This document shows, one piece after another, positions 6,934 to 57,467 of a stretch of 64,000 bases of DNA (positions are counted from its first letter, which is position 1; each line of letters begins with the position of its first letter). The position numbers were made by a program, and so were the translations under genes. The stretch is from Clostridia bacterium (GTDB lineage Bacteria; Bacillota; DSM-521; Neomoorellales; Neomoorellaceae). Where the stretch lies: the NCBI GenBank assembly GCA_030445865.1, contig JASUSV010000004.1, positions 10,061 through 74,060 of the forward strand, written 5' to 3'. A model generated the notes under the pieces. The model had not been told where the DNA came from and searched no databases. It saw only the letters and a program-made list of their open reading frames with translations.

Positions 6934-7467
6934 GTGGATAATTTCAGGGGCAAAAGCATCATTCTCATCGGCTTTATGGGCACCGGCAAAACCATCGTTG
7001 GGAGGTTGCTGGCGGAAAGGCTGGGGAGGGAATTCATTGACACCGACGAGCTGGTGGAAGAAGCCATGGGCTTGTCCATACCTTTAATCTTTCGGCGCTA
7101 CGGCGAGAGCCGTTTCCGCGCTGAAGAAAAAGCTGCCGTAGCCCGGGCAACTGCCCGGCAGGGGGCGGTAATTGCTACCGGAGGAGGAGCCGTTTTAGAC
7201 CCGGAAAACGTTGCCCGCCTTAAGGAAGCGGGGGTAATTATCTGGCTTCAGGCTACGCCGGAAGCCATCTTTGAGCGTACCGGGCGGGGAGAAGGTCGCC
7301 CCCTGCTGGAAGGCCGCCATTCCGTTGAAGTTATTGCCGGCCTGTTGGAGAGAAGGATGCCTTATTATCAACAGGCTGCCGACTTAATTATAAATACCAC
7401 CGGCCGGCCGCCGGAAGAAATAGCCAGGCAAATAGAGCAGGAGTTGAATTTATGGTCGCCGAATTGA
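6934..7467 (+). CDS. aroK: Shikimate kinase
   Basis: The P-loop GFMGTGKT and DTDELVEE are present. The ORF is open from 6877, but a GTG at 6934 preceded by AGGAGAGGGG is the more likely start. Confidence 0.85.
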   Translation: MDNFRGKSIILIGFMGTGKTIVGRLLAERLGREFIDTDELVEEAMGLSIPLIFRRYGESRFRAEEKAAVARATARQGAVIATGGGAVLDPENVARLKEAGVIIWLQATPEAIFERTGRGEGRPLLEGRHSVEVIAGLLERRMPYYQQAADLIINTTGRPPEEIARQIEQELNLWSPN

Positions 7468-10632: not shown

Positions 10633-12570
10633 CTGGACAGAATTGTCATATCCCGACTGATAAAGCTGACCGGTGATGTAACAAACACAGGCAATAATTC
10701 CGCCTTTCTCCAAAGGGTTCAAGTTCTGGAGGGAAAGGATGAGCTTGCCCTTCTGTCCGTTGAAATCAACAAAATGTTGGACAGGCTGGAGGAGTACCGG
10801 CAAGAGATACATGAGAGGGAAAAGAAATATAGAGAGGTGGTGGAAAACGCCGCTGAAGCCATTGTTGTGGTCCAGGACGGTGTGGTCAAATTCGTCAACC
10901 GGGCGGCAGCGAAACATACGGGATACGCAGAAGAGGAGCTTATTTCAAACCCTCTTGCCAACTTCATCCACCCGGAAGACAGGAATGCGGTAACGGAACA
11001 TTGCAGGGAGTTGCTTGAAGGCAAGCGTGTCTTATACGCATTTCCGTTCAGGATAATAGCCAGAAACGGGAGTGTCAGGTGGGCGGAAACAAACTCCGTG
11101 GTGTGCGAATGGGAGGGGCGGCCCGCCACTTTAAATTTTCTCACCGATATTACCGCTCGCAAGTTGCTGGAAGAAGAGCTGCAGAGGTTGATGGCAGAAA
11201 AATCGCTAATTCTTGACAGCCTTGCGGAGCTGGTTGTATTTCTGGACCGCGATATGCACATTATCTGGGCCAACCGTGCGGCTGGCGAATCCGTTGGCGC
11301 CAGTCCCGAAGCCCTCTGGGGAGGGAAATGCCACGAAATATGGCACGGGAGGAGTTCTCCCTGCGAGGGCTGTCCGGTCGTCCGGGCCATGGAGACCGGC
11401 CAGGTATGCGCGGGTGAGATGGCCTCCCCGGACGGCCGCTTCTGGCATATAACGGCCTCTCCCGTCAGGGATAAAAACGGAAACGTTGTGGGCGCGGTTG
11501 AAGCAACTCTGGATATCACCGAGCGCAGGCGATACGAGGAACAGCTGAAATACTTAAGCCTGCACGACCTGCTGACGGGCCTTTACAACCGGGCCTTTTT
11601 CCAGGAGGAGCTCAGGCGCTTGTCCTCCAGCCGGGAATACCCGATAACAATACTGGTGGCGGACCTGGACGGCCTGAAACTGGTTAACGACACCCTGGGC
11701 CATGCCAAAGGCGATGAGATGTTAAAGGCCTGCGCGGATGTTTTGAGAACCTCCCTCCGCCGCTCTGATATCCTTGCCCGCATAGGAGGCGACGAATTTG
11801 CCGCCCTTTTGCCCAGAACAGGTGAAAAAACTGGGGAAGATATTGGGTGCCGGATACGCTCCCGTATCTATGGCTACAACAAAGAACACCCCGAGCTGCC
11901 CCTGCACCTGTCCATAGGCTTTGCCACGTGCCAAAGCGAGGATGAATCTCTCGAAGATACCTTTAAGCAGGCCGACGACCTCATGTACCGCCACAAGCTT
12001 GTGCACAGGGCCAGCGCGCGGAACCAGATTGTCGGCGCCCTGCTGGCAGCCTTGAAAGAAAAAGATTACATCACTGCGGGGCATGCTCAGCGGCTGGAGG
12101 AATTGTGCTTAAAAATGGGGGAAAAGATAGGTCTTTCTCCCCGGCAGATGGCCGACCTGGCCCTGCTGGCGCAGGTCCATGACCTGGGCAAAGTTGCCGT
12201 ACCGGACAGCATCTTGTTCAAGAAAGGCCCGCTTACAGAGGAAGAATGGGAGGTCATGCGCCGGCACCCCGAAAAGGGCTACCGCATCGCCCTTTCCTCA
12301 CCCGACCTTGCCGGGGTGGCAGATTTAATTCTCAAGCATCATGAAAGATGGGACGGCAGCGGCTATCCCCTGGGGCTAAAGGGCGAAGAGATACCTGTAG
12401 AATGCCGCATCCTGTCCATTGTCGATGCCTTTGACGCTATGACCAGCGAGCGGCCCTACAGGAAGCCCAAAAGTAAAGAAGGGGCGATCATAGAGCTTAA
12501 AAGGTGTGCGGGAAGCCAGTTTGACCCGCAACTGGTTGATATCTTTGTTTCCATGTTTTCGGCGGCATGA
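10633..12570 (+). CDS. HAMP-PAS-PAS-GGDEF-HD-GYP c-di-GMP turnover protein (C-terminal part of the interrupted gene; first Met at 10774)
   Basis: It is in the same frame as 9754..10632, with no other stop between them. The HAMP-like segment LDRIVISRLIKLTGDV..DELALLSVEINKMLDRLEE is followed by two PAS domains. The GGDEF motif is intact (RIGGDEFAALLP), as is the HD-GYP domain (VHDLGK..HHERWDGSGYP). Confidence 0.8.
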   Translation: MDRIVISRLIKLTGDVTNTGNNSAFLQRVQVLEGKDELALLSVEINKMLDRLEEYRQEIHEREKKYREVVENAAEAIVVVQDGVVKFVNRAAAKHTGYAEEELISNPLANFIHPEDRNAVTEHCRELLEGKRVLYAFPFRIIARNGSVRWAETNSVVCEWEGRPATLNFLTDITARKLLEEELQRLMAEKSLILDSLAELVVFLDRDMHIIWANRAAGESVGASPEALWGGKCHEIWHGRSSPCEGCPVVRAMETGQVCAGEMASPDGRFWHITASPVRDKNGNVVGAVEATLDITERRRYEEQLKYLSLHDLLTGLYNRAFFQEELRRLSSSREYPITILVADLDGLKLVNDTLGHAKGDEMLKACADVLRTSLRRSDILARIGGDEFAALLPRTGEKTGEDIGCRIRSRIYGYNKEHPELPLHLSIGFATCQSEDESLEDTFKQADDLMYRHKLVHRASARNQIVGALLAALKEKDYITAGHAQRLEELCLKMGEKIGLSPRQMADLALLAQVHDLGKVAVPDSILFKKGPLTEEEWEVMRRHPEKGYRIALSSPDLAGVADLILKHHERWDGSGYPLGLKGEEIPVECRILSIVDAFDAMTSERPYRKPKSKEGAIIELKRCAGSQFDPQLVDIFVSMFSAA

Positions 12571-15559: not shown

Positions 15560-15745
15560 ACAAGAAGGAATTTGGCTAATTTTGGCGAATTAAATGGTAT
15601 CCCTGTTAAGGGCAAACCTGGCGAAAGCCGGGGGCGCAAAGCTACGGGCCTAAGGGTGAAAATGCCTATGGCCGCCGGGCTGCCGGGGGAACTGGTTCTT
15701 CCGCAGCGGCTCGGCGCGTCTTTTTTCTGGCGGTGTAGTGTAGAT

Positions 15746-17062: not shown

Positions 17063-17554
17063 ATGCGGAAAAAAGTGAGAGATGAGCGCGGTTTTACCCT
17101 GGTGGAACTGCTGGTGGTCATCGCCATCATCGGCATCCTGGCCGCCATAATCCTACCCAACGCCTTCAAGGCCATTGAGAAGGGCAAGGTGGCGGCAGCG
17201 GAAGCGGACTACAAGGCGATTAAGGCCGCGGCGCTGAATTACTATACTGATACTGGTGTATGGCCTACAGACGGTGCAGGTAACACGGGATTTGTGACTG
17301 CACCTACGCCATCGGTATCTGGCTGGAACGGCCCTTATCTTGAGCGCTGGCCGAGCAAGAACCCGTGGGGTGGCAAATACTATTACATCAAAGATGGCGA
17401 CTGGGATTTCGATAATGATGATGATTCAGGTTACAGGTTCTTACAGTTGGACAATGTTCCGTCCAGCGCCATAAGCAGGTTAGAGAGTGACCTTGGGAGC
17501 GACGTTGTAAAAACAGATAATAACAAGATTAACATCCTCATCTCTAAAGACTAA
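17063..17554 (+). CDS. pilA: Type IV pilin / GspG-like major pilin, paralog 1
   Basis: The prepilin signal RG|[19 protein letters not shown] and the GspG-like motif [14 protein letters not shown] are present. A strong RBS, AGGAGG, precedes the start. Confidence 0.88.
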
Positions 17555-17698
17555 GGTTACGATGTGCTAAAAGAAACTCGGAATTGTGGTTGGGTCTACG
17601 ATAAGTGTTTAGAAACTGTTTTGTGATACGAATAAAGCATTATATGGCTGAAAACAGTCGGTGATCGACAACAAGGGGCAGCTGGGCCTGCTTTACAC

Positions 17699-17735
17699 GT
17701 GTCCTGCCGGCGCCCTCCGGCGCCGGCAGGACATG
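17699..17735 (+). other. GC-rich perfect stem-loop downstream of pilin 1
   Basis: GTCCTGCCGGCGCC (17701-17714) and GGCGCCGGCAGGAC (17719-17732) form a 14-bp perfect stem with a 4-nt loop, extendable by flanking pairs. There is no U-tract. Confidence 0.6.
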
Positions 17736-17821
17736 GCCCCAGCCGGAACCGGTGCGCCTGTTCCTGGGAATGAAGTAGTAAACCGGAATCTCTTTTTCCC
17801 GGGAGAGGTTGTGAGCCATTG

Positions 17822-18353
17822 ATGTCAGGTTTCCCCAACCTGCACCGCGACCGCCGCGGCTTCACCCTGGTAGAGCTTCTGGTGGTCATCCGCCATCATC
17901 GGCATTCTCGCCGCCATAGTGCTTCCGAATGCATTTCAGTCCACCGAGAAGGCCAAAATCGCCCAGGCCTATGAGACCGCCAAGGCGATAAAGTCGGCTG
18001 CGGTGCAGTACTATGCGGATACGGGGCGCTGGCCCGCGATGACTGACAATTACAGTGACATCAACGGGTTCTTGAAAGATGACGGAACGCCCGGATGGAA
18101 CGGGCCGTACCTGGAGAAATGGAAATTTGGCCCCTGGAACGGCCGGCTACGCTGGGACACGAGCATAAACGTAACCGGGGGACCTGCCAAGGATGCGATT
18201 ATTGTTTTCGACGATGACCATACACGGGATTCCAATGATAACCAGGGTAAGATTCCGCGTCGTTCGATGGAGGTAATCGACCGCACCCTTGATGATGGGA
18301 ATCTGGCTACAGGTTTTGTTCAGGGCGACGGATTAGGACACCATGCTGCCTAA
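17822..18353 (+). pseudogene. Type IV pilin paralog 2, disrupted by a +1 frameshift in the N-terminal helix
   Basis: The ATG at 17822 gives [23 protein letters not shown]. The sequence then reads GTCATCCGCCATCATC where the paralogs have GTCATCGCCATCATC, an extra C at about 17890. The rest of the pilin (LPNAFQSTEKAKIAQ..WNGPYLEKW) continues in the ORF 17919..18353. Confidence 0.8.
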
Positions 18354-18491
18354 GGAGAACTGGTTATTGTACTGGTGGCGGATGTGCAGTAGTGATCAAT
18401 GCAAGGCGTTCTTGCAAATCATGCAGGCAGTTTTTGGCATAAACTATTTCATTTGGCGTACGGGAAGCGCTTTTCAAAAGCGGGTGACAAT

Positions 18492-19070
18492 ATGCTCGGA
18501 TTTCTAAACCTGCGCCGCGACCGCCGTGGCTTCACCCTGGTGGAGCTTCTGGTGGTCATCGCCATCATCGGTATCCTGGCCGCGATAGTTCTTCCCAGCG
18601 CCTTCAAAGCGGTGGAAAAGGCGAAGATATCGCGGGTGGTCGCCGACGTGCGGGCCATAAAGGCGGCCGGTCACGCCTATTACGCCGATACCGGTGACTG
18701 GCCTAAATCAGGGCAGGATGCTTACGATCCCGGCCCTGGCGACGACTACGGCTTCCGGTACTTCATGGAGGCCGACGGCAGCGGCAGCTGGAACGGGCCG
18801 TACCTGGAGAAGCCGCCGGGTACCACGCCCTGGGGCGGTTACTACCGCTACTGGAAGAGCAGAATAACCGGTACCGTCTATGACGCCGCGGGCAATCCGA
18901 TTACAGTTAACAACACTAAATGCGCCGTGGTCACCATCGGCGGCTTTCCTGACGAAGGCATCCGCAATGCCGTGGACCAGCGCATCCGGGAGAGTGTCGG
19001 TTACTCCTATGTTGGCGAGGAAAGGGGCACTTACTACATTTCGGTGATCATCTGGATGGAAGGGTTGTAA
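18492..19070 (+). CDS. Type IV pilin paralog 3
   Basis: MLGFLNLRRDRRG|[19 protein letters not shown] and WNGPYLEKPP..PWGG are present. The ATG at 18492 is parallel to the paralog 2 start; the ORF is open from 18399. Confidence 0.85.
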   Translation: MLGFLNLRRDRRGFTLVELLVVIAIIGILAAIVLPSAFKAVEKAKISRVVADVRAIKAAGHAYYADTGDWPKSGQDAYDPGPGDDYGFRYFMEADGSGSWNGPYLEKPPGTTPWGGYYRYWKSRITGTVYDAAGNPITVNNTKCAVVTIGGFPDEGIRNAVDQRIRESVGYSYVGEERGTYYISVIIWMEGL

Positions 19071-19146
19071 GTGCCGGTGCGCTTGTCGTTTGGGTATCCG
19101 GCGCCTAGCCTGTGGTTGGGCTCGCCATAAAGCCGGAGGGATTTGA

Positions 19147-19770
19147 TTGATTAAGCGGCGTTCTAAAAATGAAAAAGGCTTCACCCTGGTGGAACTTCTG
19201 GTGGTCATCGCTATCATTGGGATCCTACCGGCCATTATTGTCCCTAGTGCGTTCAGGGCTATAGAGAAGGGTAAGGTTTCCAGGGCGGTTGCGGATCTTC
19301 GGGCGATCGGTAAAGCGGCAATGGCTTATTATGCCGACGTGGGCGATTTTCCGGGGTCTAAAGGGCACCCTCCCGGTGAGCCTTTGCAGAACGGGAGCGA
19401 TCCCGGATTCGTTCGTAAGCCCGATAGCTCTTGGCAAACGGATAACCCCAATGTTGGTTATGGAGGAAACCTGGATGCCTGGGATGGACCGTATCTTGAA
19501 AAATGGCCGTCACGGCATCCCTGGGGGGACGCCTACAGCTGGAATTACTGGCGGGATTACCCTGTACCTGGAATAGGTACGACGGTAAGTAAGGCGGGAA
19601 TTGTAACGCTGGAGGACTACGGTCGCATCCCCCGTGAATCGCTGGAGGCCATTGATCGGATCCAGGATGATGGCGATCTATCCAAGGGCTATGTATTTTA
19701 CCAGCAGAGTGGCGGTGGCGTTGGTTACAATGGTAACGGCTATCTCCAAGTGGTAGTGGCTACGCAATAA
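19147..19770 (+). CDS. Type IV pilin paralog 4
   Basis: KG|[19 protein letters not shown] and [13 protein letters not shown] are present. Confidence 0.85.
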
Positions 19771-19777
19771 GAAGGAG

Positions 19778-19819
19778 CTATTGATAGTCGTCGCCATCAT
19801 CGGAGTGCTGGAGGCGTAA
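19778..19819 (+). pseudogene. Orphan fragment of a pilin N-terminal helix
   Basis: It translates as LLIVVAIIGVLEA*. The nucleotides CTATTGATAGTCGTCGCCATCATCGGAGTGCTGG resemble the conserved pilin 5' cassette. It sits immediately after the pilin 4 stop. Confidence 0.5.
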
Positions 19820-21581: not shown

Positions 21582-22099
21582 GGCGCGGGTGCGCGGGGGA
21601 ACGCGGTTTTACCCTGGTCGAGGTCGTGGTGGCCGTTTTGATCTTCAGCCTGTTGGTGGGGGCGGCACTGGCCCTGTACCATCAGGCCGTGTTGTCCTGG
21701 CGCCGGGAAGAAGCGAGGGTTGACGTCCAGGAGAACTTGCGCATCGGCCTGGATAGGATGAGCAGAGAACTTAAGACCGCCTTAAGACTGGTCGAGGCTC
21801 AGGAGGGCAGGCTGGGTTTTATTATTGAGGCAAAAGACGACGCGGGTAATACCGTACAGAAGACCGTATATTATTACCGTGATTCCGCCCGCGGGCAGTT
21901 AATGCGCAAGGTCGACGGCGGGCAGAACCCGCTGGCCAGCTACGTGACGGTTTTAAGGCTGGTGTACTACGATGCGGGTGACAATCCCACGCAGAACTTG
22001 GACAGCATCCGCCGGGTCGAGATCACCCTCACCGGGCGGAAAGGCAACGGACCCGAAGTCACAATGACTACTTCTGTAAGGATTAGGGCGCTCGGCTGA
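21578..22099 (+). CDS. PilW-like minor pilin (prepilin-type N-terminal domain)
   Basis: The motif ERG|FTLVEVVVAVLIFSLLVGAAL is present. Confidence 0.7.
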   Translation: MRRGCAGERGFTLVEVVVAVLIFSLLVGAALALYHQAVLSWRREEARVDVQENLRIGLDRMSRELKTALRLVEAQEGRLGFIIEAKDDAGNTVQKTVYYYRDSARGQLMRKVDGGQNPLASYVTVLRLVYYDAGDNPTQNLDSIRRVEITLTGRKGNGPEVTMTTSVRIRALG

Positions 22100-28119: not shown

Positions 28120-29469
28120 ATGGACCCGCAGTTAGAAAAGGATTACCTTGATCTGGTTGTGCAGGTAGTGGAAAAAGCTGGAAAACGTGGCGTTATGGCC
28201 GAGGCCTACTTGAGCGGCAGCCAGGAATTAAACATTGAGGTGCGCGACCAGGAAATTGAAGCCCTAACGGTGGCCAGCGACCGGGGGCTGGGCCTGCGCG
28301 TGCTTGCCGGCGGCAAGGTAGGATTTGCCTATACGACGGATTTAAGCCCTGCGGCGTTAGACGAAGTGGTAGACCGGGCCCTGGCCAACGCCGGCCTGGC
28401 AACGGCCGATCCCTTTAACCGCTTGCCGGGGTCTCCGGGCGGCTACCCAGAACTGGCGATCTACGATCCGGACATCGAAGCTACGCCGGTGGCAGATAAA
28501 ATCGAGATGGCGCGAAAGTTGGAGCGCGAGGCCAGGGCTTTCGACCCTAGGGTAAAGATTACGGAAAGCTGTTGCTACCGCGACCAGACCTATGTAGTTG
28601 CCCTGGCCAATTCACAGGGCGTGGCGGCCAGCTACCGCGGCGCTTACTGCGGCCTGAGCCTTTTTGTGGTCGCCGTAGAAGGGGCTGAAAACCAAACGGG
28701 TTTCAGCTTGCAGTATACCTTGCGTTTAAAAGAGCTGGACGCGGCCAGGGTAGGCCGCGAGGCGGCAGCCAGGGCGGTGCGCCAGCTGGGAGCCAGGCGG
28801 ATCGAGACCCAAAAGGCGGCAGTTGTCTTCGATCCCTACGTGGCCAGCAATTTTTTGAGCGTCCTTGCCTCCAGCCTGACGGCCGAGGCCGTGCAGAAAG
28901 GTAAGTCGCTTTTTAAAGGCCGCGTAGGCCAGAAAGTGGCTTCGGATATGGTGAGCATCATCGACGACGGCCGCCTGGCCGGCGGCATTGCAACGGCGCC
29001 CTTTGATGGCGAAGGCGTGCCTACCGGCCGCACCGTCCTAATCGAGGGCGGCATCCTGCGCGGCTTTCTCCATAACACCTACACGGCGGCCAGAGAGGGG
29101 GTAAAGTCCACCGGCAACGGCAGCCGCGGCTCTTTTAAGACTACGCCAGAGGTTGGGACGACCAACTTTTTTATCCAGCCGGGAAAACTGTCGCCCGAGG
29201 AACTTTTAAAAGATATCGAGCGCGGCTTTTACGTCACCGAGGTTATGGGCATGCATACTGCCAACCCCGTTTCCGGCGACTTCTCCGTAGGCGCCAGTGG
29301 CCTTTTAATCGAGAAGGGCGAGCTCACGCGGCCGGTACGCGGCGTGGCCATAGCCGGTAATCTCATCGGCCTCCTGGAGGCGGTGGATGGGGTTGGCAAC
29401 GACCTCGTATTTTTTGGCGCTACCGGCTCTCCGACTTTGCGCATAGCCAGGATGACCATAAGCGGGTAA
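28120..29469 (+). CDS. pmbA: PmbA/TldE
   Basis: It is a TldD/PmbA-family sequence without the HExxxH motif and is translationally coupled to tldD. Confidence 0.88.
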   Translation: MDPQLEKDYLDLVVQVVEKAGKRGVMAEAYLSGSQELNIEVRDQEIEALTVASDRGLGLRVLAGGKVGFAYTTDLSPAALDEVVDRALANAGLATADPFNRLPGSPGGYPELAIYDPDIEATPVADKIEMARKLEREARAFDPRVKITESCCYRDQTYVVALANSQGVAASYRGAYCGLSLFVVAVEGAENQTGFSLQYTLRLKELDAARVGREAAARAVRQLGARRIETQKAAVVFDPYVASNFLSVLASSLTAEAVQKGKSLFKGRVGQKVASDMVSIIDDGRLAGGIATAPFDGEGVPTGRTVLIEGGILRGFLHNTYTAAREGVKSTGNGSRGSFKTTPEVGTTNFFIQPGKLSPEELLKDIERGFYVTEVMGMHTANPVSGDFSVGASGLLIEKGELTRPVRGVAIAGNLIGLLEAVDGVGNDLVFFGATGSPTLRIARMTISG

Positions 29470-29480
29470 AATCGGGTTAT

Positions 29481-29658
29481 GAGACCGAGCCCGGAGGCGG
29501 GGCTGAGGCATGGAGGCCCGAGGCCGGCCACTTAAGTCTGCGATGTCGAATTGGCCGGGAACCCCGCCGGAGGGTGAGGGGGGCCGTACGGCTTGTTGGC
29601 GAGCCCGAAAGACACCGGCGCCAGCGCCCCGGCATGGGGAATGTTTCGGAAGCATCAT
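29481..29658 (+). repeat. GC-rich intergenic repeat, copy A (right arm plus core; 5' arm absent)
   Basis: By eye it is roughly three-quarters identical to 37281..37463. Shared blocks are GAGACCGAGCCCGGAGGCGGGGC, GGCCGGCCACT, GTCGAATTGGCCG, CCGGAGGG, GGCGAGCCCG, CGCCAGCGCCCCGGCA and TTTCGGAAGCATCAT. Confidence 0.75.
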
Positions 29659-29700
29659 AAAAACTACCCAAGAGAGCGAAAATATGGTAAAATGCTGCCC

Positions 29701-30171
29701 ATGAGGATTCTAGTTATTAACGGTCCTAACCTGAACCTGCTTGGGGAGCGCGAGCCCGAAATTTACGGCAGGGCCACCCTGGCGGAGATCGAGCAGGAGT
29801 TAAGGCGCCAGGCCGAAGCCGGAGGCGTGGAGATCGAGTTTTTTCAATCCAACCACGAAGGAGAGCTGATCGACTACCTCCACGGAGCCCGGCAGCGGGC
29901 CGACGCCCTGGTAATTAACCCCGGCGCCTTGGCCCATTACAGTTACGCCTTGCGGGACGCCCTGGCAGCGGTAGGCATACCGGCGGTAGAGGTGCATTTA
30001 TCGAACATTTACCGGCGCGAGGAATTTCGCCATCATTCCGTACTGGCCCCGGTAGTGCAGGGCCAGATCAGCGGGCTGGGAGCTTTAAGTTACCGGCTGG
30101 GGCTGGAGGCAGCCATCGCCCTGGCGAAAGAGCGCAAAACCGGGGGCGGCCCATGGGGCAGGCGCGCATAA
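29701..30171 (+). CDS. aroQ: Type II 3-dehydroquinate dehydratase
   Basis: [23 protein letters not shown] is present. The ORF is open from 29593, but that upstream part lies in the repeat. Confidence 0.92.
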
Positions 30172-35984: not shown

Positions 35985-36566
35985 TTGGAAGCGCTCGCCG
36001 ATATTGTCCGCCAGGTGGCCCTGATCGTCTTGCTGGCTGCATTTTTAGAAATGCTGCTGCCGCGGCGGGGGCTGACGAACTACGTGAGGCTGGTGCTGGG
36101 GCTTTTCGTGCTGGTGGCCATCCTCAACCCTATAGTGGGTATGCTGGGCCGGGGCGGAGAAGTCGCCGTAGCCGCCTGGGACTTGCGCCCACCCCCTCCG
36201 CTTTCAGAAGCGGTAGCCAAAGGACGGGAGCTGGCCAGGCGCAATAATGAAAAAGCCTTGGAAACCTACCGGCATTCCTTGGCCAACCAGATTAAGGCCC
36301 TGGTAAGCCTCATTCCAGGCGCGGGCGAGGCAGAGGTGGAGGTAGAAATAGAACCGGGGGAGACGGGCAGGCTTAAGCTGGTAAGGGTCATCCTGTTCAG
36401 GCCGGCCGAAGTGCGAGGTGAAATTAAGATTCCGCCGGTAGAGCTTGTCCCCGGCGACGGCGAAAATAGGAAGGTGGAACCGGAACTGGTAGAGCGGATC
36501 AAAACCACGGTTTGCCGGTTTTATAACCTGTCGCCGGACCAGGTCCAGGTAATTGCAAGGGGGTGA
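35985..36566 (+). CDS. spoIIIAF: Stage III sporulation protein AF
   Basis: Two N-terminal TM helices and the operon position fit SpoIIIAF. Confidence 0.8.
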   Translation: MEALADIVRQVALIVLLAAFLEMLLPRRGLTNYVRLVLGLFVLVAILNPIVGMLGRGGEVAVAAWDLRPPPPLSEAVAKGRELARRNNEKALETYRHSLANQIKALVSLIPGAGEAEVEVEIEPGETGRLKLVRVILFRPAEVRGEIKIPPVELVPGDGENRKVEPELVERIKTTVCRFYNLSPDQVQVIARG

Positions 36567-37185
36567 AATCGTGTCGGATAAGACCCTTTTCCCTAAAGGC
36601 TGGCTGTGGCTTTGGCAGCGGCCCCGGCGGGCCCTCTGGTTGGGCGTGGCTGTCCTGCTCGGGCTGGCGTTATTGAGTACCGGCAATCTTATGAAAGACG
36701 GTTCCGGGGTTAAAACCGCGGGCCTGCGCCCTGCTCCGGTAACAGCAGGCGGGGGCTCCCAGCAAGAAGGTAAGGGCGAGCTGGGAACCGTTGCCCGGCA
36801 GCTGGAATCGCAGTTAAAGGGTATTTTAGAGCAGGTGCGGGGTGCCGGCAGGGTTGAAGTAAGCGTCACCCTGGCCGCCGGGCCTATGCGGGAATATGCC
36901 GTCAACACCAGGACCACCAGCCGCAGCGTGGAGGAAAAAGACCAGAACGGCGGCACGCGGCTAACCAAAGAGACCAACGCCGACGACCAGGTGGTCATGG
37001 CGCGGGCCGGCCAGATCGGGGGCGAGGGGCCGGTGGTGATTAAGGAATCCATGCCCAAGGTGCAGGGGGTGCTGGTGGTTGCCGACGGAGCCGAAGATCC
37101 GGTGGTGCGCGCCCAGATGGCCCAGGCCGTGCAGACCCTGCTGGGCATAGCCGCCCACCAGGTTCAGGTGTTGCCGCGGAGATGA
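36553..37185 (+). CDS. spoIIIAG: Stage III sporulation protein AG
   Basis: A single TM helix is followed by a ring-building-motif-like C-terminal domain (KVQGVLVVADGAEDP). The operon position also fits. Confidence 0.8.
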   Translation: MQGGEIVSDKTLFPKGWLWLWQRPRRALWLGVAVLLGLALLSTGNLMKDGSGVKTAGLRPAPVTAGGGSQQEGKGELGTVARQLESQLKGILEQVRGAGRVEVSVTLAAGPMREYAVNTRTTSRSVEEKDQNGGTRLTKETNADDQVVMARAGQIGGEGPVVIKESMPKVQGVLVVADGAEDPVVRAQMAQAVQTLLGIAAHQVQVLPRR

Positions 37186-37194
37186 GGTATTGTG

Positions 37195-37469
37195 TTACAA
37201 GGGCACTTCCGCAAGAAGTATGAAAATGCCGGGGGATACTGGCGTAAGGCGACTTTGGGCGAGCCCTGCGAGCCGTTGGCGAGACCGAGCCCGGAGGCGG
37301 GGCCGAGGACAGAGAAGGCCTACGGCCGGCCACTGAGACAAACAGGAGGTCGAATTGGCCGTGAACCCCACCGGAGGGCGAGGGGGAGCCATACGGCTCG
37401 CAGGCGAGCCCGTCTGGAGCCGTCGCCAGCGCCCCGGCACAGAGAATATTTCGGAAGCATCATTACAAG
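37195..37469 (+). repeat. GC-rich intergenic repeat, copy B (full dyad-symmetric form) between spoIIIAG and spoIIIAH
   Basis: The left arm 37202-37280 is complementary in blocks to the right arm 37388-37463: CTTCCG/CGGAAG, TGCCGGGG/CCCCGGCA, CTGGCG/CGCCAG, CCTGCGAGCCGT/ACGGCTCGCAGG. The core 37281-37463 is homologous to copy A. TTACAAG occurs at both edges (37195-37201 and 37463-37469). Confidence 0.75.
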
Positions 37470-37485
37470 CAATGGGGTGAAGAAG

Positions 37486-38082
37486 ATGATGGTTGTGACC
37501 AATAGGATGCGCGTTTTGCTGGCGCTGCTACTAACCTTCGGCGTGCTGGTCTACCTGGTACAGGGTGAAAGGCGGGCTCTCTCGCCGGCAGGAATAGAGC
37601 AGCCGGCAGAAGGGCCGGGCGACAAAATTAATACCGGCGCTAAAACGACCCCTGCTGCGGCTCCTATAGTTCAGGAGCCCAGGGCGGAAGATATCCTTAA
37701 GGGCGCTCAGAGCAAGGCGGGCAGTAAAAGCGGCTCGGCTTTTTTTGTGGAATATCGCCTGGAGCGCGACCGCAACCGCAGCAAACAAATCCAGTTATTA
37801 AAGGAAATTATTGATAGCCCCAGCGCGCCCGGCGAAGGCAAGCAGGAGGCCCAGAAGAGGCTGGTGGATTTAACCCAGCAGATGGACCTGGAGCTTCAAT
37901 TGGAAAAATTAATTGTCGCTAAAGGCTACCAGGAGGCCGCCGTTTTTATCCAGCCGCATGCGGTCAACGTCCTGGTCATGGCAGCCAATTTTGGCCCAGG
38001 GGATGCGAACAAAATCGGCGACCTCGTATGCCGCGCCACCGGTCGCCCGCGGGAGCAGGTAAGCATTATACCTTTTTCCTAA
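37486..38082 (+). CDS. spoIIIAH: Stage III sporulation protein AH
   Basis: The ATG at 37486 gives MMVVTNRMRVLLALLLTFGVLVYLV (TM helix), followed by a YscJ/FliF-like C-terminal domain. The ORF-track extension back to 37192 runs through the repeat. Confidence 0.82.
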   Translation: MMVVTNRMRVLLALLLTFGVLVYLVQGERRALSPAGIEQPAEGPGDKINTGAKTTPAAAPIVQEPRAEDILKGAQSKAGSKSGSAFFVEYRLERDRNRSKQIQLLKEIIDSPSAPGEGKQEAQKRLVDLTQQMDLELQLEKLIVAKGYQEAAVFIQPHAVNVLVMAANFGPGDANKIGDLVCRATGRPREQVSIIPFS

Positions 38083-57038: not shown

Positions 57039-57467
57039 ATGCCTGAAGAAGCTAAGAAAGAAATAGCCGCTGGCGCTGATGAGCAAATCTTAGGAAGAGG
57101 TTTTGACCCTTTTGTCTATATAATTCAGCAGCTCACCAACATGGATGCTCGCTATGAGGCCCGTTTCGACCGGATTGAGACGAGGATTGATAAGCTCGAT
57201 AATAAGATCGATACTCAGATAAATGCCCTGCGCCAGGAAATGCAGGAGAATATTACTGCCCTGCGCCAGGAAATGCAGCAAGGCGATGCTGCCCTCCGTC
57301 GTGATATGCAGCAGGGTGATGCTGCCCTTCTCCAAGCGGTACAATCCCTGCAGCAGGAGATGCGGAGCATACAGAGATGGTCTATGGGGAGTTTACTGGC
57401 CGTTGTTGTAGGTCTGGGCGGAGTCATCGCCTCTTTTCTTGCCATATTGGCCAGGCTCCCTCAATAA
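57039..57467 (+). CDS. Coiled-coil protein with C-terminal membrane anchor and 11-residue tandem repeats (function unknown)
   Basis: The ATG at 57039 follows GGGGGG. The repeat region is ALRQEMQENIT/ALRQEMQQGDA/ALRRDMQQGDA/ALLQAVQSLQQ, and the C-terminal TM helix is LLAVVVGLGGVIASFLAIL. Confidence 0.65.
   Translation: MPEEAKKEIAAGADEQILGRGFDPFVYIIQQLTNMDARYEARFDRIETRIDKLDNKIDTQINALRQEMQENITALRQEMQQGDAALRRDMQQGDAALLQAVQSLQQEMRSIQRWSMGSLLAVVVGLGGVIASFLAILARLPQ
57225..57356 (+). repeat. Four tandem 33-bp in-frame repeats
   Basis: The units are 57225-57257, 57258-57290, 57291-57323 and 57324-57356, the last being degenerate. The first two share GCCCTGCGCCAGGAAATGCAG exactly. Confidence 0.8.

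Follow-up and report, generated by a model that had tools for sequence, protein, structure and literature searches.

A probable MITE family of GC-rich, palindromic intergenic elements in a Clostridia bacterium and Moorellaceae bacterium AZ2

Two related elements and their gene context

The window (the whole 64-kb stretch of DNA that was analysed, from a MAG of an uncultivated Clostridia lineage) holds two related GC-rich sequences. One of them, copy A, separates the PmbA/TldD-family gene pmbA from aroQ, while the other, copy B, separates spoIIIAG from spoIIIAH. Both are intergenic, lie on the + strand and precede a start codon, as the initial annotation of this DNA had described; the distance from the end of the element to the ATG is 43 nt for aroQ and 23 nt for spoIIIAH. 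The GC content of the elements is about 65%, versus 56% for the window. The features of the two loci are the following:

28120-29469, pmbA, a PmbA/TldD-family gene, 5' of copy A
29467-29473 (+), left target-site duplication of copy A, TAAAATC, which abuts the element and contains the pmbA stop codon TAA
29474-29657 (+), copy A, a type-1 element of 184 nt without about 77 nt of the 5' arm (nhmmer alignment to positions 75-261 of copy B)
29658-29664 (+), right target-site duplication of copy A, TAAAAAC, a 6/7 match to the left repeat
29701, ATG of aroQ, 3' of copy A
36553-37185, spoIIIAG, 5' of copy B
37195-37201 (+), left target-site duplication of copy B, TTACAAG, directly adjoining the element and identical at 7/7 positions to the right repeat
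37202-37462 (+), copy B, a full-length type-1 element of 261 nt that forms a long imperfect hairpin
37202-37292 (+), 5' arm of copy B, in inverted-repeat pairing with the 3' arm
37293-37383 (+), core or hairpin tip of copy B, with two small hairpins, the part best conserved between subfamilies
37384-37462 (+), 3' arm of copy B, ending ...CGGAAGCATCA
37463-37469 (+), right target-site duplication of copy B, TTACAAG
37486, ATG of spoIIIAH, 3' of copy B

The initial annotation had reported that positions 29481-29658 and 37281-37463 align over their whole length and share four identical blocks. The alignment does run end to end, with 83% column identity, and each of the four blocks occurs exactly twice in the window, compared with ~0-0.3 matches per block in dinucleotide-preserving shuffles. 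Neither repeat finding nor a profile search detected a third copy in the 64 kb. The repeat itself was thus correctly recognised, but its ends required revision: copy B reaches 79 nt further in the 5' direction (to 37202), copy A starts at 29474, and the 3' ends lie at 29657 and 37462, where both copies terminate in ...GCATCA. The earlier coordinates left out the 5' arm of copy B, from which the anatomy of the element became apparent. Two features had gone unseen, namely the 7-bp flanking repeats and the inverted-repeat hairpin formed by copy B over its full length.

The 5' extension of copy B is an imperfect reverse complement of its 3' part. Its segments 37206-37214, 37227-37234 and 37265-37276 pair with the 3' arm, and the inverted-repeat pairs are TGCCGGGG/CCCCGGCA, CCTGCGAGCCGT/ACGGCTCGCAGG and CTTCCGCAA/TTTCGGAAG. 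The two halves of copy B are imperfect inverted repeats, and the whole can fold as one hairpin with a conserved two-hairpin tip (whole-element RNA fold: MFE -135.5 kcal/mol, z -7.0; DNA fold: z -4.6). The core sequence reads GGAGGCGGGG...GAACCCC.CCGGAGGG.GAGG. The internal GGCCGG/CCGGCC-type stem noted earlier in both copies is present as CCGGCCA/TGGCCGG, pairing 29524-29533 with 29549-29558 in copy A and 37327-37339 with 37349-37361 in copy B. The terminal inverted repeat is TGATGCTTCCG, the reverse complement of the 3' end of copy B, which faces the type-1 5' end GGTGCATCCG or GGCACTTCCG; terminal inverted repeats are present, with the terminus motif ...TGRTGCWTCCG, and the 5' termini are degenerate.

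The elements lack coding capacity, as indels between the copies shift every reading frame, and their six-frame translations found no homologue among 5.8 billion proteins. Promoter and terminator scans returned nothing inside copy A or copy B; close to copy A, the only sites resembling a promoter or a terminator fall wholly or in part within the coding end of pmbA. A frame on the + strand (37192-38082, a 296-aa ORF from GTG) runs without a stop across the entire copy B into spoIIIAH, whose frame it shares, so that a gene caller could give SpoIIIAH a spurious N-terminal extension through the element.

Past the right repeat of copy A, the native aroQ upstream sequence, which is conserved in Moorellaceae bacterium AZ2, restarts at CTACCCAA, and copy A adjoins the upstream edge of the aroQ promoter. 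The aroQ gene has no Shine-Dalgarno sequence in the window (29685-29703) or in the contigs L020 of AZ2 (~122-140), L021 (~7030-7049) and L026 (~11440-11461). In these four genomes (4/4) an extended -10 (TGGTAAAAT or TGATACAAT) is conserved and ends 6-7 nt 5' of the ATG. Taken together, these sequence features suggest that the aroQ mRNA is leaderless. An exact counterpart of the AroQ protein was absent from the assembly index.

Two resemblances were discarded. The 3' coding end of pmbA (CCGACTTTGCGCATAGCC) resembles the 5' arm of copy B, a likeness judged to be due to chance because this sequence encodes the conserved C-terminus of PmbA. The resemblance of GAGCCAUACGGCUC to group II intron domain V found no support in Rfam.

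Copies in Moorellaceae bacterium AZ2 and a second subfamily

A scan of 185,579 species genomes with the longest shared block (the 20-mer GAGACCGAGCCCGGAGGCGG) yielded 11 matches, ten of which were chance occurrences in unrelated GC-rich genomes; only that in Moorellaceae bacterium AZ2 (GCA_051024685.1, contig L004) was real. The nearest relatives of the window MAG show ~64-69% identity in SpoIIIAA and PmbA. The proteins of AZ2 are ~64% identical to those of the window, versus 81-90% nucleotide identity for the element segments. At least five copies or fragments are found in 33 kb of AZ2, located 5' of a UPF0316-like gene, 5' of a tRNA-Gly gene, between pmbA and aroQ, and, as a fragment, 5' of an Asp23 gene. 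They include a second subfamily, referred to here as type 2:

L004:5188-5331, L004a, a type-1 copy of 144 nt, 3'-deleted
L004:4623-4890, L004b, a type-2 copy 5' of the tRNA-Gly gene
End of contig L025 and start of contig L020, a split type-2 copy at the AZ2 pmbA stop codon
L020:~12294-12364, a type-2 3' fragment
L004:1-76, minus strand, a type-2 copy

The collection comprises seven members, five of them full-length or nearly so and two fragmentary, and six of the seven are co-oriented with the neighbouring genes. L004a resembles copy B from ~79 nt upstream of the start initially assigned to the latter, the homology beginning at the 5' end of copy B (GGCAC/GGTGCA). All three type-1 copies (A, B and L004a) start with GG and end with GCATCA. 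In L004a, GTCGAA is joined directly to GCATCA, with ~110 internal nt missing relative to copy B, the 3' arm having been lost between the microhomologies TCGAA and TCGGAA. Copy A and L004a are internally deleted derivatives, and judged by sequence the type-1 family is one full form (copy B, 261 nt) accompanied by two different deletion derivatives (184 and 144 nt).

Type-2 elements are about 268 nt long and, as seen in L004b, have the same architecture as type 1, with a whole-element fold of z -9.0. The six type-2 ends give the consensus terminus CTGAGTTATCCCC, which faces the reverse-complemented 3' ends CTGAGTTGTCCCC, CTGACATATCCTC and CTGGCGCATCCCC. Between copy B and L004b, identity reaches 70-75% in the ~90-nt hairpin tip, versus 49-55% of columns in the arms. 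Pairwise identity of the arms is 50-51% across subfamilies and 56-60% within an element, a statistic that is uninformative in sequence this rich in GC. The consensus fold of the core holds six compensatory pairs, in which both sides have changed and pairing has been kept. Directly 3' of the right repeat of the type-2 copy L004b lies the near-consensus promoter (TTGACA, 17 nt, TAAAAT) of the tRNA-Gly(CCC) gene, at L004:4898-4935.

Additional copies are also implied by short-read assemblies. Logan contigs of the window organism break at 29536, 29627 and 37268, each in two independent samples, and the other ends of the contigs sharing these breakpoints differ between samples. Since the longest exact run common to copies A and B (23 nt) is shorter than the assembly k-mer, the identical breaks imply additional near-identical copies elsewhere, and the break at 37268 implies that the 5' arm of copy B is repeated elsewhere too. 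This multi-copy status is inferred from the breaks and is not a count, and coverage failure at a GC-rich hairpin would be an alternative cause of the breaks. Contigs of AZ2 likewise break inside the pmbA-aroQ element, and the elements would explain why short-read assemblies are fragmented at these points.

As far as seen in the collections scanned, the family appears to have a narrow range, comprising the window MAG and AZ2. A metagenome scan with a two-block pattern gave six matches, all of them chance occurrences inside coding regions, and none of the 97 matches of the core pattern in viral contigs was confirmed by nhmmer, all being chance occurrences; the type-2 terminus pattern had 0 matches there. 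Literature searches on Moorella MITEs, IS4-family MITEs in Clostridia and c-di-GMP-II-GAG brought up nothing relevant and no earlier description of the element.

Flanking direct repeats and empty sites

Direct repeats of 7-10 bp flank five elements. In type 1 they measure 7 bp and abut the homology boundaries: TTACAAG/TTACAAG at copy B (7/7), TAAAATC/TAAAAAC at copy A (6/7) and GAGGTTA/GAGGGTA at L004a (6/7). The chance probability at one fixed position is ~6e-5 for identity at 7/7 and ~1e-3 for 6/7 or better. The type-2 repeats are longer, 9-10 bp (CGGGACTTAG/CGGGACTTAG; CCGCAAGGGG vs CCGCAGGGG).

The same spacers exist in relatives without the element. In L021 both spacers lack an element, with 14 nt between spoIIIAG and spoIIIAH and 109 nt between pmbA and aroQ; the corresponding lengths in L026, also without an element, are 44 and 105 nt. 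AZ2 has an empty spoIIIAG-spoIIIAH spacer of 41 nt and a pmbA-aroQ spacer occupied by a type-2 element. Deletion in silico of copy B together with one TTACAAG restores a spacer of 40 nt in which the ribosome-binding site of spoIIIAH is intact. Copy B was inserted into a 40-nt spoIIIAG-spoIIIAH spacer, and copy A at the stop codon of pmbA, just 5' of the aroQ promoter.

The pmbA stop codon carries a type-1 element in the window (29467-29473) and a type-2 element in AZ2 (L025:11344-11353), within a few bases of each other. These two insertions are independent, with different target duplications, and the stop codon may be an insertion hot spot.

A mobile element and its alternatives

The repeats are very probably copies of a MITE, a non-coding, non-autonomous DNA transposon of ~261 bp. 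This reading is based on the terminal inverted repeats, the target-site duplications and the empty orthologous sites in relatives, together with the deletion derivatives, the copies at unrelated loci of a distant genome and the assembly breaks inside the elements. The size under ~500 bp, the absence of coding capacity, and a dispersed distribution in which orthologous sites may be occupied or empty are those of a MITE. A transposase encoded elsewhere would bind the termini, excise or copy the element and insert it at staggered cuts, which would give rise to the flanking direct repeats of 7 bp in type 1 and 9-10 bp in type 2. Once inserted, the element would be carried passively in the transcripts of its neighbours as a very stable hairpin. 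Several observations run against a MITE: conservation between subfamilies is higher in the hairpin tip than at the termini, contrary to the usual pattern; the stems show compensatory changes, and six of the seven copies share the orientation of the genes beside them; the type-1 5' termini are degenerate; the duplication lengths of the two types differ; and no autonomous partner came to light in the window or the fetched loci.

The termini offer a lead regarding the transposase. The type-2 terminus CTGAGTTATCCCC agrees with the IS10 inside end CTGAGAGATCCCC at 11/13 positions, and 6/6 type-2 ends agree with IS10 ends at 9-11/13 positions, a match that is short (13 nt) and post hoc. The 3' ends of type 1 agree at 8-9/13 positions, and its 5' ends do not match. 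The IS10 ends used (CTGATGAATCCCC and CTGAGAGATCCCC) were verified on plasmid R100, where they flank an annotated IS4-family transposase. Target duplications measure 9 bp in IS10 and 7-13 bp in the IS4 family, and the lengths observed here are compatible with the IS4 range without being diagnostic. A tblastn search for an IS10-like transposase or an autonomous partner found none in the window or the fetched loci. The IS10-like ends lend partial support, short of proof, to the idea that the element is possibly mobilised by an IS4-family, IS10-like transposase.

The nearest known counterparts are bacterial MITEs derived from IS4-family insertion sequences, for example with IS10/IS50-type ends, or MIC231, an IS231 derivative present in the Bacillus cereus group. 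Like these MITEs, the elements described here are small, non-coding and intergenic, with terminal inverted repeats, deletion derivatives and target-site duplications whose lengths are compatible with the 7-13 bp typical of IS4. In contrast to them, the whole element is palindromic and not just its ends, the type-1 termini are degenerate, the centre exceeds the ends in conservation between subfamilies, and neither a partner IS nor a transposase turned up in the window or the fetched loci. ERIC, Correia/NEMIS, RUP, BOX and bcr1 are intergenic repeats that form long hairpins, and the present elements resemble them as intergenic imperfect palindromes of 100-300 bp. ERIC-type repeats, as here, occur in full-length and internally deleted forms, and are co-transcribed with their neighbours as stable RNA hairpins. 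However, the two share no sequence similarity, the hosts here are thermophilic or anaerobic, Moorellaceae-like Clostridia, the present elements are rich in GC, and the duplication length differs (Correia elements duplicate TA).

A more limited role for RNA concerns the hairpin tip (GGAGGCGGGG...GAACCCCGCYGGAG, ~90 nt), which has a small chance of being a functional structured RNA or single-stranded-DNA module carried by the element. Two grounds favour this idea: although arms and termini differ between the two subfamilies, no part of the element is better conserved than the tip, and compensatory changes have preserved the pairing of its stems. Such a module could serve the mobilisation of the element itself, in the manner of a transposon-encoded guide or cofactor RNA, or could be an exapted signal for mRNA stability or processing; if real, it would also account for the 6:1 co-orientation with genes.

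That the repeats as a whole constitute a family of structured RNAs (non-coding or cis-regulatory, of a riboswitch-like or sRNA kind) acting on the downstream genes, which the initial annotation had left as one of its two options, is unlikely. Such a family would fit the orientation of six of the seven copies with respect to the downstream genes, the conserved core with its six compensatory pairs and the very low fold z-scores of copy B and L004b. Nevertheless, these downstream genes are unrelated (aroQ, spoIIIAH, the UPF0316-like gene, tRNA-Gly and Asp23), relatives have no element at the corresponding positions, and one would not expect an RNA gene to be flanked by target-site duplications. 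Moreover, both strands of copy B fold equally well (plus strand z -5.6, minus strand z -6.2), only 2/81 of its pairs are G·U, and truncated copies persist even though they cannot form the fold (compared with shuffles, copy A z -1.05 and L004a a marginal z -2.6).

The Rfam searches also speak against an RNA family. No family was found at threshold for the repeats, and permissive scans of both copies and L004 gave only sub-threshold c-di-GMP-II-GAG matches and noise. The 5' arms of copy B and L004a share with c-di-GMP-II-GAG (RF03169) the 12-nt string UGGCGAGACCGA and an 11-bp flanking stem. This weak match could favour an RNA, but it reaches only 24.8 bits in copy B and 25.9 bits in L004a, compared with a gathering score of 40, and 39/86 model positions are absent. 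In the full element the supposed P1 strands pair with the 3' arm, and copy A lacks the segment altogether; this candidate was rejected. Over the whole window, the scan at gathering thresholds returned only a full-length c-di-GMP-I riboswitch (RF01051, 84 bits, E 4e-15) at 15601-15687 (+), 5' of a type IV pilin-like gene cluster. At 17084-19816 and 21599-21656 there are 4-5 tandem paralogous genes with a common N-terminal prepilin motif and a spacing of ~650-770 bp.

It is very unlikely that the repeats are REPIN/REP-type palindromes spread by a RAYT (Y1 transposase), or hairpin elements of the IS200/IS605 type. REP and REPIN sequences are short palindromic units (20-40 nt) or doublets with an associated RAYT. 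The long imperfect hairpin, the compensatory changes, the intergenic location and the multi-copy status would agree with such an origin, but a length of 261 nt is far beyond that of REP doublets, and five elements are flanked by direct repeats of 7-10 bp. REPINs and derivatives of IS200/IS605 are not known to duplicate their target site on insertion or to carry terminal inverted repeats of the IS10 type. Hence, from the earlier proposal of a MITE/REP-like element, the MITE part stands, and the REP-like part falls on account of the length and the duplications.

A purely local segmental duplication without mobility has next to no probability: it would fit the presence of only two copies in the window, but each has its own flanking duplication, the contig breaks imply further copies, and the related copies at other loci in another genus (AZ2) refute it in practice.

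Read as a MITE family, the elements appear to be of an ordinary kind, though not previously described themselves, that occurs both in an uncultivated Clostridia lineage and in an isolate of the Moorellaceae, and they open no new class of mechanism. They would mark past transposase activity or horizontal exchange between the two lineages. Copy B sits in an essential sporulation operon and copy A abuts the aroQ promoter, and the element may influence mRNA stability. For annotation purposes, these GC-rich blocks of 184-261 nt call for masking as mobile repeats; they should not be reported as riboswitches, sRNAs or N-terminal extensions.

Two further observations concern the surrounding DNA. The position directly 3' of spoIIIAH is occupied by a pyruvate carboxylase subunit gene in the window, versus a Cas6-like gene in the related MAG GCA_030154265.1 (L026:19932-20321). 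At 57219-57284, an apparent coding sequence of the window contains a 33-nt tandem duplication whose units are 79% identical.
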